Assembly (NCBI GenBank): GCA_026709085.1
Contig: JAPOTR010000048.1
Span: forward strand, 1-24,000
DNA length: 24,000 bases
Reading direction: 5' to 3'
Source: Cyanobacteria bacterium MAG CAR3_bin_5
Lineage (GTDB): Bacteria; Cyanobacteriota; Cyanobacteriia; PCC-6307; Cyanobiaceae
Shown here: positions 9,611 through 20,648 of the stretch, piece after piece
How the letters are laid out: the number at the start of each line of letters is the position of its first letter
Numbering within the stretch: the stretch's first letter is position 1
Position numbers and translations under genes: made by a program
The notes under the pieces: generated by a model
Seen by the model: the letters and a program-made list of their open reading frames with translations, nothing else
What the model was told of the DNA's origin: nothing
Databases searched by the model: none

Positions 9611-10741
9611 ATGACCAGTGGCATCGGCATCCGCACAGCCACGTCGGCCCACGGGCGCACCCGCGGTCAGTTGCACATCTACGACGGCGAAGGCAAGGGT
9701 AAGAGCCAAGCGGCCCTGGGGGTGGTGTTGCGCACCATTGGCCTGGGGATTTGCGAGCAGCAAAACACCCGGGTGCTGCTGCTGCGCTTCTTGAAGGGAC
9801 CGGGTCGCGCCTACGATGAAGACGCTGCCATCGAAGCGCTGCAGCAAGGGTTTCCCCATCTCATCGACCAGGTGCGCACCGGACGGGCGGAGTTTTTCTC
9901 CGCTGACGAGGTGACGGCATTCGACCGCCAGGAAGCCCAGCGGGGTTGGGACATTGCCAAGGGGGCCCTGGCCAGTTGTCTCTACTCGGTCCTGGTGCTG
10001 GATGAGCTGAATCCCGTGCTGGACCTGGGCCTTCTGGACAAGGACCAAGTGATCAAAACCATGGGACAGATGCCCGCCGACGTGGAAGTCATTGCCACCG
10101 GCCGCGGGGCGCCGCGGGAATTGACCCGCCTGGCGGACCTCCATTCGGAAATCTGCCCCCATCAGCACCAACCCACCGGCGATCACCGGATCGGGGGAAT
10201 CGAGATCTACACCGGCGAAGGCAAGGGGAAGTCCACCAGTGCGCTGGGCAAGGCGCTCCAGGCCATCGGGCGGGGCATCAGCCAGGACACCAGCCACCGG
10301 GTATTGATCCTGCAGTGGCTCAAGGGTGGGCAGGGCTACACGGAAGATGCCGCCATTGATGCCTTGCGCCAGAGCTACCCCCACCTGGTGGATCATCTGC
10401 GCAGTGGACGGGATGCCATTGTCTGGCGCGGTCAGCAGCAACCCATTGATTACGTGGAAGCGGAGCGGGCCTGGGAAATTGCCCGGGCCGCCATCAGCAG
10501 TGGCCTCTACAAAACGGTGATCCTTGATGAGCTGAATCCCACCGTGGACCTGGAGTTGTTGCCGGTGGACCCCATCGTGCAAACCCTGCTGCGCAAACCC
10601 AAGTTCACGGAAGTGGTCATCACGGGGCGCTGCAAGAACACCCCTTCCTACTTTGCCCTGGCCAATATCCACTCCGAGATGGTGTGCCACAAGCATTACG
10701 CCCAGCAGGGGATGAGCCTGAAACGGGGGGTGGATTACTGA
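9611..10741 (+). CDS. cobO: cob(I)yrinic acid a,c-diamide (cob(I)alamin) adenosyltransferase, tandem two-domain CobA/CobO form
   Basis: 376 aa with two homologous halves, each with a P-loop-like motif (YDGEGKGKSQAALG and YTGEGKGKSTSALG) and DELN. Only the second half ends with the CobA-type tail KHYAQQGMSLKRGVDY. An in-frame stop at 9584 fixes the ATG at 9611 as the start. Confidence 0.88.
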   Translation: MTSGIGIRTATSAHGRTRGQLHIYDGEGKGKSQAALGVVLRTIGLGICEQQNTRVLLLRFLKGPGRAYDEDAAIEALQQGFPHLIDQVRTGRAEFFSADEVTAFDRQEAQRGWDIAKGALASCLYSVLVLDELNPVLDLGLLDKDQVIKTMGQMPADVEVIATGRGAPRELTRLADLHSEICPHQHQPTGDHRIGGIEIYTGEGKGKSTSALGKALQAIGRGISQDTSHRVLILQWLKGGQGYTEDAAIDALRQSYPHLVDHLRSGRDAIVWRGQQQPIDYVEAERAWEIARAAISSGLYKTVILDELNPTVDLELLPVDPIVQTLLRKPKFTEVVITGRCKNTPSYFALANIHSEMVCHKHYAQQGMSLKRGVDY

Positions 10742-10835: not shown

Positions 10836-11297
10836 TCATGGGGGAGCGGTTGGCGGACGGCAACGTTGGATGTCATCACCTGGAATGACGCGGGATGGAG
10901 CGGGGCTGTATCCGGCCAGGCGCCGGGCAAGATGGTCCCGCAGACGATCATCCACCTCGTAGGCGGTCATGTCCAGGGATCCGAAGCCAAAGCCGCCCGT
11001 CAGCCGGCGGTAGAGAAACCACAGGCGCGTGCCCCCTGCCCGCCCCTGCATCCAATAGACGGCAGGCGTCATGAACCGGGCAAGCTGGTCTTTGCCTGTC
11101 CTTGCCCTGCGCTTCCCCGTGACGATGGGCGCCTGCTCCTGGGGCATGGTGTCTGCAAGGTTCAGTTGGAGCATCCAAGATTCCCACTGCGGCAGAACAA
11201 TACCAATCGTCTCATGCAAACTGGCGGCAATGCCTTGCCGGCTATTCCCCTCGCAGCAACTGAAGTTGCTGCTGCAGAACGCGCTCGAAATCAACAC
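10836..11297 (-). CDS. hypothetical ORF downstream of the endonuclease remnant; either a separate small gene (Met at 11174 or 11147) or a frame-displaced C-terminal part of the endonuclease
   Basis: It lies in the same frame as the first two endonuclease fragments. The protein-like stretch is GIVLPQWESWMLQL...TRLWFLYRRL...LDMTAYEVDDRLRDHLARRL. No family was confidently recognised. Confidence 0.35.
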   Translation of the reverse strand: MLISSAFCSSNFSCCEGNSRQGIAASLHETIGIVLPQWESWMLQLNLADTMPQEQAPIVTGKRRARTGKDQLARFMTPAVYWMQGRAGGTRLWFLYRRLTGGFGFGSLDMTAYEVDDRLRDHLARRLAGYSPAPSRVIPGDDIQRCRPPTAPP

Positions 11298-12035
11298 GGG
11301 TTACAGCGTCTGCCGCCAGGAGTCTCTCGCTGGATGCCTCCAGAGTCAACACTTCCCAATGACCGCGGATAAGCTGTCCGTCCTGCAGTTCGGGAACCAG
11401 CCACACCACGTCACCGGCATCCAGATCCTGACTGGGTTGTACCGATGGCCCCCCAAGGGCCGCGAAGAACGGACGATCTACGGCCACAGCAATCTTGGAA
11501 TGCCACCGGCGTAAGGTCGGCCCCTTGATCTGCAACTGGGGCATCAGCCGCTTGGCGCTGGATGACCGCCAATTCGGCCGACGCTCTCCATGCCCGCCCC
11601 GGAAAAATAGACGGCCTGCACTTCCAGACCAAACCATCTCAGCCCTTGACGCCGGGAGGCGATCACCAAATCAATTTTACCGGCCGGTTTCCCCGTGGTT
11701 GTGCTGCGCATGAACGGAACCTCCCGGGCCAGCAGCACGTCATCCGGTTGGAACCCGACAATGTCGGCCAGCCATCGAGTCACCATCCTGTCCTGCTCAA
11801 AGCGTGTGGGGCAGACAATGACGGGTTCACCAGCGACGCCACTGATGCGCTGCTCTGCCTCGCGCTAAGGTTGGATAGAGCACACGCCACCCCGTTTGTT
11901 GCACACCATCGGACGGAACGGACAGGTTGGCGGCGCCGCCTCTGCCATGGCGATTGCTGCATAGGCACGGCGCTCAGCCGGGGACAACGACAGCAGCGGT
12001 CGGCCGTACCATTCACCAATTCCGTAACGGCTCAT
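11242..12035 (-). pseudogene. NotI-family-like type II restriction endonuclease, disrupted by an in-frame TAG and at least one frameshift
   Basis: The ATG at 12035 overlaps the methyltransferase stop (ATGA). The N-terminus MSRYGIGEWYGRPLL...PTCPF...CNKRGGVCSIQP is Cys-rich like NotI. A TAG lies at 11865-11867 and the same frame continues as ...VIVCPTRFEQD...GKIDLVIAS...WFGLEVQAVYFSG (a D...ExQ core like NotI EIQTMDFHGSY). That frame stops at 11544. Coding then continues in another frame (11637..11242): KGPTLRRWHSKIAV...VVWLVPELQD. Confidence 0.6.
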
Positions 12036-12997
12036 GAGAATAAGGAGTCGCGGGTGATAACCAGTTCAGGAATGCGGGCGTGATGTCCGTTTTTCATGTC
12101 AACGACTACAGCGTGGAAGTGGTGTTCCCGAATGAGTTCAACCACCTGGGAGGAATAATCGTAGGTCATCAGGAAATCAGCATGACTGCGGGCCAGCGTA
12201 TGGAAAATCCGTGCATGGTCAACGGTGTTGTGCCTGTAGAGACGAGAACCGGCTCGCTTCCCGCCGGCAGCGGTGTAGGGCGGGTCCACGAAGAACTTGG
12301 TCTCCGGGTAATCTGCAAAGGTGTCCAGCATGCCCACGCCGTTACCCTCGTAAAACAACAACCGGTCAGCATGACGGGCGATGTCTCGAAGCCGCTTGGC
12401 CAGGGTGTCGGGATACCAACGGGAGCAGAGACCGCCGCCATTCTCGCCGTGGCGTGTCAGGGATGCCCCAGGCGCCAAAACGCCGCCCCGTCGTGTGCGA
12501 TTCAGCACCAGTGTGCGGAAACCATGGTCCAGTACAGACTGGGGCGCTTGCCGGGCAAGCTGTTCCACCCCGTCCCGGTCCGGTGAGAAGGCAAGAATCC
12601 GGGCGATCAGATCCTCTGAATGATCGAGGGCAGCACGCCAGAATGCTGATACATCCCGGTCAAGATCCACCATGAGGGCGCGATTGGCGCGCCCTTCCAT
12701 GACAGACGTCAGGGACACAATCCCGCCCCCGGCAAATGGTTCCATCAACAGGGGCGTGGGTGGACCATCACCCAACCACTTGCGGATGTGGGGAATCAGC
12801 CATGTTTTTCCGCCAGGGTAACGCAGGGGGCTCCGCTGGGGAACGCTGGCAACGTTCACGGCAGGCAGCGCTGACCTGTCAAACTCCTGAGCTATACCAC
12901 TCCTTTCCATCACTGGCGGAGCCGATGAAATCGCCCGAGTTGGCGGAGAAGGCTCCGGAGTTGTTGGCCATAGGTTGTGTTGTTCAGGGTCAATCAT
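12032..12997 (-). CDS. D12-class (Dam-like, alpha-group) DNA methyltransferase, probably N6-adenine
   Basis: 321 aa and intact. It has PLRYPGGK, the EPFAGGG SAM-binding motif and a C-terminal FVDPPY catalytic motif. Its ATG at 12997 overlaps the upstream ORF's stop; an alternative Met is at 12910. Confidence 0.88.
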   Translation of the reverse strand: MIDPEQHNLWPTTPEPSPPTRAISSAPPVMERSGIAQEFDRSALPAVNVASVPQRSPLRYPGGKTWLIPHIRKWLGDGPPTPLLMEPFAGGGIVSLTSVMEGRANRALMVDLDRDVSAFWRAALDHSEDLIARILAFSPDRDGVEQLARQAPQSVLDHGFRTLVLNRTRRGGVLAPGASLTRHGENGGGLCSRWYPDTLAKRLRDIARHADRLLFYEGNGVGMLDTFADYPETKFFVDPPYTAAGGKRAGSRLYRHNTVDHARIFHTLARSHADFLMTYDYSSQVVELIREHHFHAVVVDMKNGHHARIPELVITRDSLFS

Positions 12998-13533
12998 GTC
13001 AGTTTATATTTTTGACTCTCTAACTCTAATTGTTTGATGTAGGTTTTGGTCTCGGCTATCTCGCTGCGGAAGTAGCGTGTTGGCTTGAGGCACGCCTCAA
13101 TGGTTTTCAGTTCCTGAATGGCATGCTCTAGCGACTCGGCTGGTTTTGTACCTCTACTCTTCATTGCAGAAACGATTGCGTAGCCGCCAACTCCAAGTGC
13201 CACGACTGGCATGGCTAAGACTGTAACCCCAGCCGCCATGCCACCCCCAACAAGTGCTCCTGCCGTCGCTAAAGCTGTGGTAATTCCAGGAGCCATGAGA
13301 CCAGGTATACCCAAGCCATATAGCAAGGCAGTGGAACCTAGGCCACCCAATAAACTGCCACCAGCTGCTGCAGCCATTTCCAAGCCTGGCACATCTCTCT
13401 TGATCCGATTCAACACGGCCGTCACATCTTTCTCTGCCTCCTCCTTCATCTGCTGAACCGTTGCCTCGGGCAGGCTCCTGGGTAGGCCCAAAGCTGCCCA
13501 GGCAGAGAAATCAGAGCCTGGCATGGTCGTCAT
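12994..13533 (-). CDS. glycine/alanine-rich (glycine-zipper-like) membrane protein, hypothetical
   Basis: The likely start is the ATG at 13533 (MTTMPGSDF...); the track ORF extends to 13671 through GC-rich sequence that does not look protein-like. The central region GGSLLGGLGSTALLYGLGIPGLMAPGITTALATAGALVGGGMAAGVTVLAMPVVALGVGGYAIV is followed by a charged, coiled-coil-like tail. It is AT-richer than the adjacent methyltransferase. Confidence 0.6.
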   Translation of the reverse strand: MTTMPGSDFSAWAALGLPRSLPEATVQQMKEEAEKDVTAVLNRIKRDVPGLEMAAAAGGSLLGGLGSTALLYGLGIPGLMAPGITTALATAGALVGGGMAAGVTVLAMPVVALGVGGYAIVSAMKSRGTKPAESLEHAIQELKTIEACLKPTRYFRSEIAETKTYIKQLELESQKYKLT

Positions 13534-13679
13534 TCTGCACAAGGCGAGGTCGCATTTTACCGGATTCCCCCTCACTGCATCACCCCTGCCGCAACGCCAG
13601 CCGTCAGCCCCGCTCCACCCCTGCCCATGGGGGTAAGGCTTCTTGAGTCCGCCGATTGCCGCTCTGATCACCGCTTGGC

Positions 13680-14303
13680 GTGGCGTCCGGCCCTAAGCTG
13701 GTCCGCAGCAATCGCTTGTGTGTCCTGGTGCTTTGGCGCCCCCGACTGTCGCCACCCCCGTTGGGCGAGACGCAGCGGCTCAGTGCTGCCCAGGTGGAGG
13801 CTGCCCAGGGTCAGGTTGACGAGAACCACCTGTTGCAGCGCCTCTACGGCGTCGGCTTTGAGGAATTGCAGGTTCCCAACCCTGAGATGCGCCTGTTCCT
13901 CAGCCTGAAGCGGGAGGTGGATCTCCTGGAACTGGAGCGGATCACCACGGCAGTCGGTTGGCGTCCGCGCCCGATACGCCGGGTGCGGCGCGCCCTGCGC
14001 CACAGCCTGATGGTGGTGGGGGTCTGGCGTCATGACCCGTTTTTCCCCCGGCTGGTGGGCTTTGCCCGTTGCATCGGAGACGGGGTGATCAATGCCACGG
14101 TGTGGGACGTGGTGATCCACCCCGCCTATCAGGGAGCAGGGCTGGGGCATGGGCTCATGGCGTTTGTCGTGGGGCGACTCCGGGCCATGGGTATAGAGCA
14201 CGTCACCCTCTTTGCCGATCCCGGCGTCATCCGCTTCTATCAGAACCAGGGCTGGGAGGTGGAGCCCGATAACCAGCGCTGCTGCTTCTGGTATGCCTCC
14301 TGA
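13680..14303 (+). CDS. GNAT-family N-acetyltransferase (cyanobacterial Ycf52-like)
   Basis: The acetyl-CoA binding core is VWDVVIHPAYQGAGLGHGLMAFVV, followed by LFADPGVIRFYQNQGWE. The start is uncertain: GTG 13680, GTG 13794 or ATG 13887. Confidence 0.85.
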   Translation: MASGPKLVRSNRLCVLVLWRPRLSPPPLGETQRLSAAQVEAAQGQVDENHLLQRLYGVGFEELQVPNPEMRLFLSLKREVDLLELERITTAVGWRPRPIRRVRRALRHSLMVVGVWRHDPFFPRLVGFARCIGDGVINATVWDVVIHPAYQGAGLGHGLMAFVVGRLRAMGIEHVTLFADPGVIRFYQNQGWEVEPDNQRCCFWYAS

Positions 14304-19147: not shown

Positions 19148-19685
19148 TCAAGGAGAGTTTCTATGGTGATGGTCTGCGCAAGGGCACTCTGTCCAGCAGG
19201 GGTCGTTGTTCATGTTGCGACCCTGCCGGATCAAGTGGCGGCGCCGCGAAGCCAAAGAGCCACCCCATGGCGGTGGGACCACGACGGGCCAGTCTGCGGA
19301 AGACCCTGTTGCGGCTGATGCGGGCATTGTGACAGACCGCCAGCTTGGCACTGTCGGCAAAGGAGATGCCGGTCTTCTCGCCGCAGAAAGAATGTAGGAG
19401 CAGGTCAAAGGGCGGGGTGCAGGCTCACAAACCGGCCATAACTGGGGAGAGCGCCAAAGCAGTCCCGGTACTGGCATCTCAGACTATAGCGCCAGCAATA
19501 CTTGAAGCCCTTGTAGCTCGAGATATGGGCAACAGCGCCAGAATGAAGAGCATCTCCCCGAGGGAGAGCTTGCCCGCTCTCCTGCGCTGGCGATCTGAGG
19601 GGATCAAGAGGTGACGTTCCTACTGCTCAAAGAGCTTGGCAAAGCCATCCGGACAACAGAACAGGGCAATGGTGGATTCATGCAT
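19148..19685 (-). mobile_element. degraded IS982-family DDE transposase remnant (in-frame stop, frameshifts, 3' truncation)
   Basis: Hand translation across three frames gives MHESTIALFCCPDGFAKLFEQ*, then ..GKLSLGEMLFILALL.., then ISSYKGFKYCW...[13 protein letters not shown], then [38 protein letters not shown]. This is colinear with IS982 transposase motifs (YCxxDDFxK, LPxYxxF, ADSxKLxVC, GKSSMGWFYGFKLH). The region carrying the second D and the E is absent. Confidence 0.65.
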
Positions 19686-19881: not shown

Positions 19882-20391
19882 TCAGGGTTCCTCAAAGTAA
19901 AACTTTGCCGCGTCAGCCAACAATCTGTCAAGTTCTGTTTCAGGCGGCCCATAGAAAAAGAGGCTAATCTCTTCCTTGTGTATTTTCTTTTCTTCTTCAT
20001 TTAATAAACAACGTGAACTAATTTCTTTTTGTATGGCAAGTAGTTTTCCTTTAGATAAACCTATTTCTTCCTCCCAATCTTGAGCATTTCGGCTAGCCAT
20101 TGCCCCTCCAACAATTCCCCAGTTCATCATTCTCATAGTGTCATCTTGTCTTTTTATGACTTGCTTTTCTCTTAACACAATAAGTTCATCTTTTTCTTCT
20201 GCTCTTGCTTCTAATAATGTTTCACAGTCCATCTTAGTATAGATATTCTCTTCTGTCAATTCAATCGCATCAATTTGATGGGGTGCTTTGGTTTGAGGAC
20301 TGTAACATGAAGACAGGACGAAACTAACCATGGCTAATAGGAAATAGCCTTTCAGTCTGGGGAGATGGGGGGGGGGTGGAGAGCATGGCAA
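19882..20391 (-). CDS. hypothetical lipoprotein (low-GC, Glu/Lys-rich)
   Basis: 169-aa ORF with the signal/lipobox LKGYFLLAMVSFVLSSC. It is strongly AT-rich compared with its flanks. The in-frame start is only a TTG at 20391, and the nearby ATG at 20386 is out of frame because of the C10 tract. No family was recognised. Confidence 0.6.
   Translation of the reverse strand: MPCSPPPPHLPRLKGYFLLAMVSFVLSSCYSPQTKAPHQIDAIELTEENIYTKMDCETLLEARAEEKDELIVLREKQVIKRQDDTMRMMNWGIVGGAMASRNAQDWEEEIGLSKGKLLAIQKEISSRCLLNEEEKKIHKEEISLFFYGPPETELDRLLADAAKFYFEEP
20367..20376. repeat. G10 (C10 on the coding strand) homopolymeric tract in the 5' end of the lipoprotein gene
   Basis: Counted directly in ggagat-gggggggggg-tgga. 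It encodes the PPPP run of the ORF. Confidence 0.95.
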
Positions 20392-20648
20392 GCAAAAAGC
20401 AAATCACCTTCCATCCTGTCCCTGAGACCTTGCTTCTGTCAAGTTACAGAATATTGCAACTTTGAAGTCCCAAGCCATGCCGCTGACCGGCTCTCTATCG
20501 AGTTTATCAAGGGCATCCCCCTCCCAGCAGGAGGGACTCCAGGGACTCTTCAAGGAACTCTTCATCAGGCGAGGTTCCTTTCGCGCCCCACAACGCACCG
20601 CTTCCTGTTGTCTCCACTGACCCCACCTTGGCCTTCCGTGACTCCTTT

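Follow-up and report, generated by a model that had tools for sequence, protein, structure and literature searches.

A decaying composite restriction-modification island of sponge-associated cyanobacteria with a Bunzi-like membrane protein gene in first position

We analyzed a stretch of 24,000 nt (contig JAPOTR010000048.1, positions 1 to 24,000; hereafter the window) from Cyanobacteria bacterium MAG CAR3_bin_5. It carries a minus-strand cassette of three genes, which encode a Gly/Ala-rich membrane protein (X), a D12-class N6-adenine DNA methyltransferase (M) and the remains of a NotI-family restriction endonuclease (R). The description of this cassette as a decaying, clade-specific composite restriction-modification (R-M) island with a Bunzi-type first gene is well supported. 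Bunzi is an experimentally validated anti-phage system and consists of BnzA and BnzB (10.1101/2022.05.11.491447). The whole reading, which we favour with somewhat better than even confidence, is that of a decaying composite R-M island of sponge cyanobacteria led by a recruited Bunzi-type membrane gene that contributes to defence. That X works with the R-M enzymes is what we infer from their conserved coupling, from the selection acting on X and from the behaviour of the X family elsewhere.

In the proposed scheme, the island would be specific to sponge-associated (Candidatus Synechococcus spongiarum-like) cyanobacteria. When complete, it would run from a promoter-like region through X, a D12 m6A methyltransferase, a NotI-family nuclease and an Eco57I-like methyltransferase to a BsuBI/PstI-family nuclease. 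X would have lost BnzB in the sponge cyanobacteria and would now head an R-M operon, coupled to it translationally; X, M and R are probably co-transcribed from a conserved upstream element. X itself may be a membrane-embedded defence partner, most likely a membrane sensor or anchor, or else a separate membrane-acting layer beside restriction. As R is dead, the second R-M pair a stub and the N-terminus of X lost, the window locus is now at most an orphan adenine methyltransferase with a remodelled X.

Recurrence and coupling of the cassette

Sponge-associated cyanobacteria carry the X-M-R arrangement, or its remnants, in at least four different genomic settings. The first context lies between a GNAT gene and cobO (the window, L001, L002 and L008, as well as L003-6 with another downstream flank). 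The second is next to GAPDH (L007, L011, L012 and L185-187), the third next to a ChlI-like gene (L013 and L014), and the fourth lies between another D12 R-M pair and CobN (L015 and L016). R-M abundance in sponge cyanobacterial symbionts is reportedly the topic of published papers.

In the window, the three open reading frames (ORFs) stand in series, the start of R being an ORF of 56 aa at 11865-12035. Both junctions are ATGA stop/start overlaps, at 12994-12997 between X and M (read as ACATGATTG) and at 12032-12035 between M and R (read as TCATGAGCC). The X/M overlap is kept in seven of nine loci and the M/R overlap in all nine. Loci from different contexts become homologous at the DNA level 60-115 nt ahead of X. 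Their common upstream sequence contains a GGTAAA(A/T)T box, some 20 nt ahead of the X start, that is invariant in eight loci; the -10-like sequence of the window, GGTAAAAT, has TAAAAT at 13559-13554, also about 20 nt before the X start. The upstream region is a putative promoter. The -10-like box was not called in a sigma-70 consensus scan, and a promoter/terminator scan of the cassette found nothing beyond shuffled expectation. An initial annotation of this DNA had described three coupled minus-strand genes joined by ATGA overlaps and had treated the trio as one unit. Both statements hold within the sponge-cyanobacterial clade, as the overlaps were read in the sequence and are kept in relatives, and the same order, junctions and upstream region return in the different contexts.

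Two copies of the island, L011 and L013, lie about 80 kb apart in one 2.72-Mb genome. Their NotI segments (L011 7320-8588 versus L013 7398-8666) are 99.4 % identical and their X genes 84 %; most of M is lost in L011. Because the NotI segment is nearly identical despite the divergence of X, a recent intragenomic conversion between the two copies is indicated.

The cassette is flanked by cobO (9611-10741, plus strand), which is convergent with it, and by the GNAT gene (13680-14303, plus strand), which is divergent from it. The GC content at third codon positions (GC3) is 0.52 in X, 0.63 in M and R and 0.72-0.80 in the flanking core genes. With values below those of its neighbours, the cassette is compositionally foreign, and the two genes flank it as the initial annotation describes. 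No tRNA gene or obvious attachment site was found at the island flanks. The two arms of a 17-nt inverted repeat (94 % complementary) enclose the cassette, at 13605-13621 within the conserved upstream region and at 10892-10908 within the second methyltransferase stub; this may be due to chance.

The membrane protein X and its family

X is built of an N-terminal helix, a hydrophobic Gly-zipper hairpin and C-terminal helices. Of its two hydrophobic Gly-rich stretches, one is strong and the other weaker; amphipathic helices flank them, and the hydropathy maximum falls on residues 92-117. All three products of the cassette have their nearest relatives in metagenome bins of sponge-associated cyanobacteria, which suggests a Candidatus Synechococcus spongiarum-like symbiont as the source of the window; X is 95 % identical to a protein of Cyanobacteria bacterium MAG CAR4_bin_6. 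When X was searched against Pfam, NCBIfam and PHROGs, no usable domain was obtained, and a profile search against PDB sequences returned coiled-coil or ion-channel noise alone. An AlphaFold2 model based on a 65-sequence alignment had a mean pLDDT of 57.7, with values below 40 across the Gly-rich transmembrane region. A helix-turn-helix (HTH) controller protein was considered as a candidate identity and ruled out, as X has no HTH and is a hydrophobic Gly/Ala-rich protein instead.

Most cyanobacterial X homologues are 230-245 aa long and have an N-terminus that reads MTIPGSD...PTLSRRSLLLQAASLLALYVVTVPGPAVA, followed by LGLP. This long form contains a twin-arginine-like motif, then a hydrophobic stretch and then an AxA site, and the segment may be a Tat signal or an N-terminal anchor. 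In the X genes of the window and L001, an in-frame deletion has removed about 54 codons, the PTLSRRSLLLQAASLLAL...AVA segment included; the first approximately 13 codons are kept and are followed by a direct jump to ALGLP (junction near 13494/13495). In L008, this N-terminal segment has another lesion, which shifts the frame. The initial annotation had called X and M intact and R decayed. This is correct for M and for R, which has two lesions (see below), and has to be revised for X in view of the in-frame loss.

Between long-form copies, the ratio of non-synonymous to synonymous rates (omega) of X is 0.33-0.57 (bootstrap upper bounds 0.49-0.79), with a minimum of 0.10-0.47 in the C-terminal helices. 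The chance that the X ORF would stay open under random substitution at the observed divergence is 0.001-0.006. From these two results, selection acts on the X protein, though less strictly than on M and R. The same values bear on an explanation that we regard as improbable, namely that X remains from a Bunzi-like pair in which BnzB was displaced by the R-M cassette, so that X is kept open as a leader ORF to drive M expression and is not a working protein. No BnzB-type sequence was found by tblastn in the window or in L001-L016, the start of M is embedded in the stop of X, the constraint on X is relaxed relative to M and R, and N-terminal deletions and frameshifts are tolerated in X; all of this would suit a leader. 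However, a leader ORF should give an omega near 1, whereas the omega of X, including its upper bounds, stays below 1. Thus, a pure leader-ORF role is disfavoured.

Close and distant homologues of X matched the PADLOC profile of BnzA with E-values of 1.4e-8 to 6.7e-12, at profile positions of about 300-417 of 544. Residues 91-169 of the window X gave a partial match to PADLOC PDC-M09A (E-value 7.2e-6; 2.8e-6 for P0002), and a literature search found neither the make-up nor the mechanism of PDC-M09. When 185,579 species genomes were scanned for the X family, 80 non-cyanobacterial loci (L025-L104) were obtained from Enterobacteriaceae (including a plasmid), Gluconobacter, Methylococcales, Firmicutes, Synergistetes and others; the family has at least 1387 clusters. 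The downstream proteins were scored as homologues of the L022 protein. A downstream ORF could be called in 74 loci; in 64 of these, a BnzB homologue of 450-470 aa is encoded directly after X, often overlapping it, and the downstream proteins match PADLOC BnzB with E-values of 1e-53 to 5e-75. X and BnzB are fused into a single ORF in L057 (5869-7980). BnzB showed no Pfam domain, and its profile search against PDB sequences was empty.

BnzA was described as a protein with a TerB domain and transmembrane helices (10.1101/2022.05.11.491447). Neither TerB nor any other Pfam match was obtained for X or the homologues tested. Two ORFs were considered as TerB-bearing long forms of BnzA and rejected, as neither has TerB: the 614-aa ORF of L090 results from in-frame read-through of an upstream ADP-ribosylglycohydrolase, and the 703-aa ORF of L057 is the X-BnzB fusion. 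Based on the match to the transmembrane core of BnzA and the partnership of the X family with BnzB, we consider X a TerB-less BnzA-like membrane core. 'Membrane surveillance' has been suggested as the mechanism of Bunzi (10.1101/2022.05.11.491447; 10.1101/2025.09.30.679545), and no mechanistic work past this idea was found in a literature search. The genome scan thus revealed many pairs of a TerB-less X with BnzB in Enterobacteriaceae, Firmicutes and other groups; such pairs (e.g. L027 5905-7867 and L038 5830-7760) often lie near AbiE, HicAB, PemK, WYL or prophage genes.

Neither this methyltransferase nor NotI was found within approximately 6 kb of X in any of the 80 non-cyanobacterial X loci. 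Conversely, when 80 related D12 methyltransferase loci from diverse metagenomes were inspected, a NotI-family gene adjoined the methyltransferase in 67, and X was present only in L105, a sponge-cyanobacterial contig. Hence, D12 and NotI form an ordinary type II pair of wide distribution, and the X-R-M combination is a single-lineage innovation. The same counts bear out the initial statement that X is not a standard R-M part. The initial annotation had also suggested testing whether X homologues recur beside methyltransferases or in defence islands; outside the clade the first association fails in all 80 loci, and a link to defence exists in the form of the BnzB partner.

A more far-reaching possibility, rather unlikely in our opinion, is a membrane-coupled R-M system in which the Bunzi-type hairpin was rewired from BnzB to the type II pair. 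X would then position or activate restriction at phage DNA entry, or back up failed restriction, and the rewired X would represent a natural swap of a sensor/effector module between unrelated defence systems.

Several observations speak against the favoured reading and a tight functional coupling of X with the R-M genes. The window X itself matches the BnzA profile only weakly (E-value 0.01), and the BnzA match falls in the Gly/Ala-rich transmembrane region, which is prone to compositional bias. The non-synonymous rate of X is 3-5 times that of M and R, and several lineages carry deletions or frameshifts of its N-terminal segment. When the window is compared with L008, the flanks are 97-100 % and M is 99 % identical (dS 0.021), yet X shows a dN of 0.27 and a dS of 0.41. 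The divergent tract (window 13000-13495 versus L008 6061-6600) coincides with the X ORF, and the L008 X is closest to the copy of L011, which lies in a different genomic context. From this, X alleles are exchanged on their own, probably by conversion among paralogous islands. X is also retained where insertion sequence (IS) elements have replaced M (L185 and L186) or everything downstream (L187), which suggests that X does not need M or R. Finally, the X-R-M link arose once, so that its presence in several contexts may be due to a block that moved or was duplicated and not to functional dependence.

The main rival explanation draws on these data. It takes X as an independent small membrane protein at the 5' edge of the island, carried along as the block duplicates, converts and rearranges, its co-transcription with M being incidental. 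We consider it possible, though clearly less probable than the favoured reading. The X frame is still open after the IS replacements, X alleles recombine independently of M, the lower GC3 of X relative to M and R suggests a separate origin, and outside the sponge-cyanobacterial clade no X homologue adjoins a methyltransferase. However, the X/M overlap has been kept in most loci at dS values of up to 0.5-0.9, the common block always begins just upstream of X, and each cyanobacterial X with a recovered context adjoins M-R or remnants of it. Elsewhere, moreover, X proteins obligately occupy the first position in modules of two genes.

Methyltransferase, nuclease remnant and second R-M pair

M matches Pfam MethyltransfD12 (PF02086) with an E-value of 5e-11. 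The best PADLOC match, over nearly the full length, is PD-Lambda-5_B (3.3e-39), and MTase_II is also matched (2.4e-23). The AdoMet-binding FAGGG (FxGxG) and catalytic DPPY motifs are both present and invariant in the homologue alignment. M is 100 % identical to the database protein P0072 and 89 % identical to a protein of Synechococcus sp. UBA8638, and its dN/dS is 0.10-0.24. Its N-terminal extension of about 35 aa (window 12911-12997 for the first 30 or so codons of M), which reads MIDPEQHNLWPT..., is clade-specific and creates the overlap with X; M homologues of other phyla (approximately 287 aa) are without it, and the conserved core begins near residue 39. All indels in the extension are in frame. 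The extension therefore appears to be translated, and the ATGA-coupled start is probably used. As far as sequence can tell, M is the sole clearly functional gene of the window locus.

The broken frames of R match Pfam NotI with E-values of 1.2e-19 and 1.5e-4. The Pfam assignments expected for M and for the broken frames were thus obtained, and none was obtained for X. The L001 orthologue of R is intact (283 aa; NotI 1.2e-45) and 97 % identical to the window R. By alignment to L001, exactly two disabling lesions were mapped: a TAC to TAG change at codon 57 (window 11865-11867) and a frameshifting deletion of 58 nt at codons 151-170 (window approximately 11585). R is intact in the orthologous loci L001, L002, L003-5 and L013, and the omega of intact R is 0.15-0.20. 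The NotI gene was broken independently in at least five lineages (the window, L008, L009, L012 and L015).

The initial annotation let the NotI remnant reach through to 10836. This extent has to be shortened, as homology to L001 R stops at 11242. The stretch 10836-11241 was considered as part of NotI and rejected, since tblastn places the stub of a second methyltransferase there; 10839-11174 has 42-47 % identity to the first 100-120 residues or so of an Eco57I-like methyltransferase of 459-492 aa. In sponge cyanobacteria, another R-M pair often adjoins the X-M-R block: in L003, L012 and L013, the NotI gene is followed by an intact Eco57I-like methyltransferase and then by a BsuBI/PstI-family nuclease (PADLOC MTase_II 4e-206 and REase_II 2e-120; Pfam Eco57I and BsuBI_PstI_RE). 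From the match of the stub to the N-terminus of this methyltransferase, the window holds the beginning of a second R-M pair, the remainder of which was deleted in the lineage.

The decay of R with retention of M had led to the initial proposal that X is a membrane-disrupting abortive-infection toxin kept in check by M or by the methylation status, in a methylation-guarded module that outlives its nuclease. X and M are indeed retained beside a decayed R in all five lineages named above, the Gly-zipper hairpin of X is hydrophobic, its family is associated with defence, and PD-lambda-5, whose methyltransferase is the best PADLOC match of M, was described as a compact 'RM+Abi' (PMC9519451). However, neither sequence nor context points to toxicity or to a link between X and methylation, and nothing shows abortive infection or guarding. 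X is the first and presumably constitutively expressed gene of the operon, it persists without M in L185-L187, and PD-Lambda-5_A has no counterpart in the cassette. In addition, M outlasting R is the expected outcome of ordinary R-M decay. We consider the guarded toxin very improbable, and the window locus carries the modest message of a decaying island with M as its only clearly functional gene. The features of the cassette are listed in Table 1.

Table 1 Features of the cassette in the window, with the evidence for each
Feature	Coordinates	Strand	Evidence
Conserved upstream region	13554..13644	-	Homology between contexts; invariant -10-like box
X, Gly/Ala-rich membrane protein, 179 aa	12994..13533	-	ORF; PADLOC matches; hydropathy; selection
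M, intact D12-class (Dam-like) N6-adenine DNA methyltransferase, 321 aa	12032..12997	-	PF02086; PADLOC; motifs; dN/dS
R, NotI-family restriction endonuclease pseudogene	11242..12035	-	Pfam NotI on fragments; alignment to L001
Stub (112 codons) of Eco57I-like (gamma-type) methyltransferase	10839..11174	-	tblastn versus L003, L012 and L013

Two other regions of the window were recorded. A GmrSD_N/DUF262-family protein of 586 aa is encoded at 244-2004 on the minus strand (Pfam 5.5e-33; PADLOC HEC-05 1e-29). Its GC3 is 0.34, compared with 0.72-0.80 in core genes, and it lies in an island of 39-40 % GC; it is a second defence gene, unrelated to the cassette, and was probably acquired horizontally. 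Near dnaA, the segment at approximately 19298-19588 is 76 % identical to a DDE_Tnp_1_3 transposase fragment that adjoins the L013 island copy, and beside it lies a patch of 41 % GC (19882-20500), the ORF of which (19882-20391) is without a Pfam match. Both segments look like IS debris.

Comparison with known systems

The cassette differs from a C-protein-controlled R-M operon in that it has no small HTH controller upstream. PD-lambda-5 is a two-gene Escherichia coli prophage system, and it resembles the cassette in the match of M to PD-Lambda-5_B and in joining a methyltransferase with non-standard partners. However, X, the NotI fragments of the window and the intact NotI orthologue all gave no match to PD-Lambda-5_A, and the nuclease of the cassette is a classical NotI-family enzyme.

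Zorya and Kiwa are defence systems that pair a membrane component with a nuclease. They share with the cassette the presence of a membrane protein and DNA-targeting enzymes in one operon, which is an analogy of possible mechanism and not a classification. A single distant X-like ORF gave a weak ZorA match, and homology is otherwise absent; X is a single small hairpin protein, not a MotAB-like motor.

As for Bunzi, the homologues of X, and more weakly the window X, match the part of the BnzA profile that covers its transmembrane core, and outside cyanobacteria the X family stands directly upstream of BnzB and is once fused to it. In contrast to the described BnzA, the window X has only about 180 aa and no TerB, an R-M pair takes the place of BnzB in the window and the cyanobacterial loci, and the cyanobacterial X has an extra twin-arginine-like N-terminal segment that is missing in other members of the family. 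An X homologue that acts without BnzB and TerB would help to define the role of the membrane core alone.

With type II systems of the D12 and NotI (PF12183) kind, the cassette shares the methyltransferase motifs and the PF02086 and MTase_II matches of M, a full-length NotI-family orthologue of R, and an adjacent, overlapping arrangement of M and R. It differs by the addition of a conserved, translationally coupled membrane-protein gene upstream of M and by the clade-specific N-terminal extension of M. The order is M then R, whereas in most relatives R is upstream of M, and the window R is a pseudogene, which leaves M with no intact cognate endonuclease. Should X truly cooperate with the R-M enzymes, the island would be the first case of a type II R-M operon that has its own membrane component, and it would illustrate concretely how Bunzi and R-M exchange modules. 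An X-led R-M variant, restricted to one clade, fits the known modularity of defence systems.

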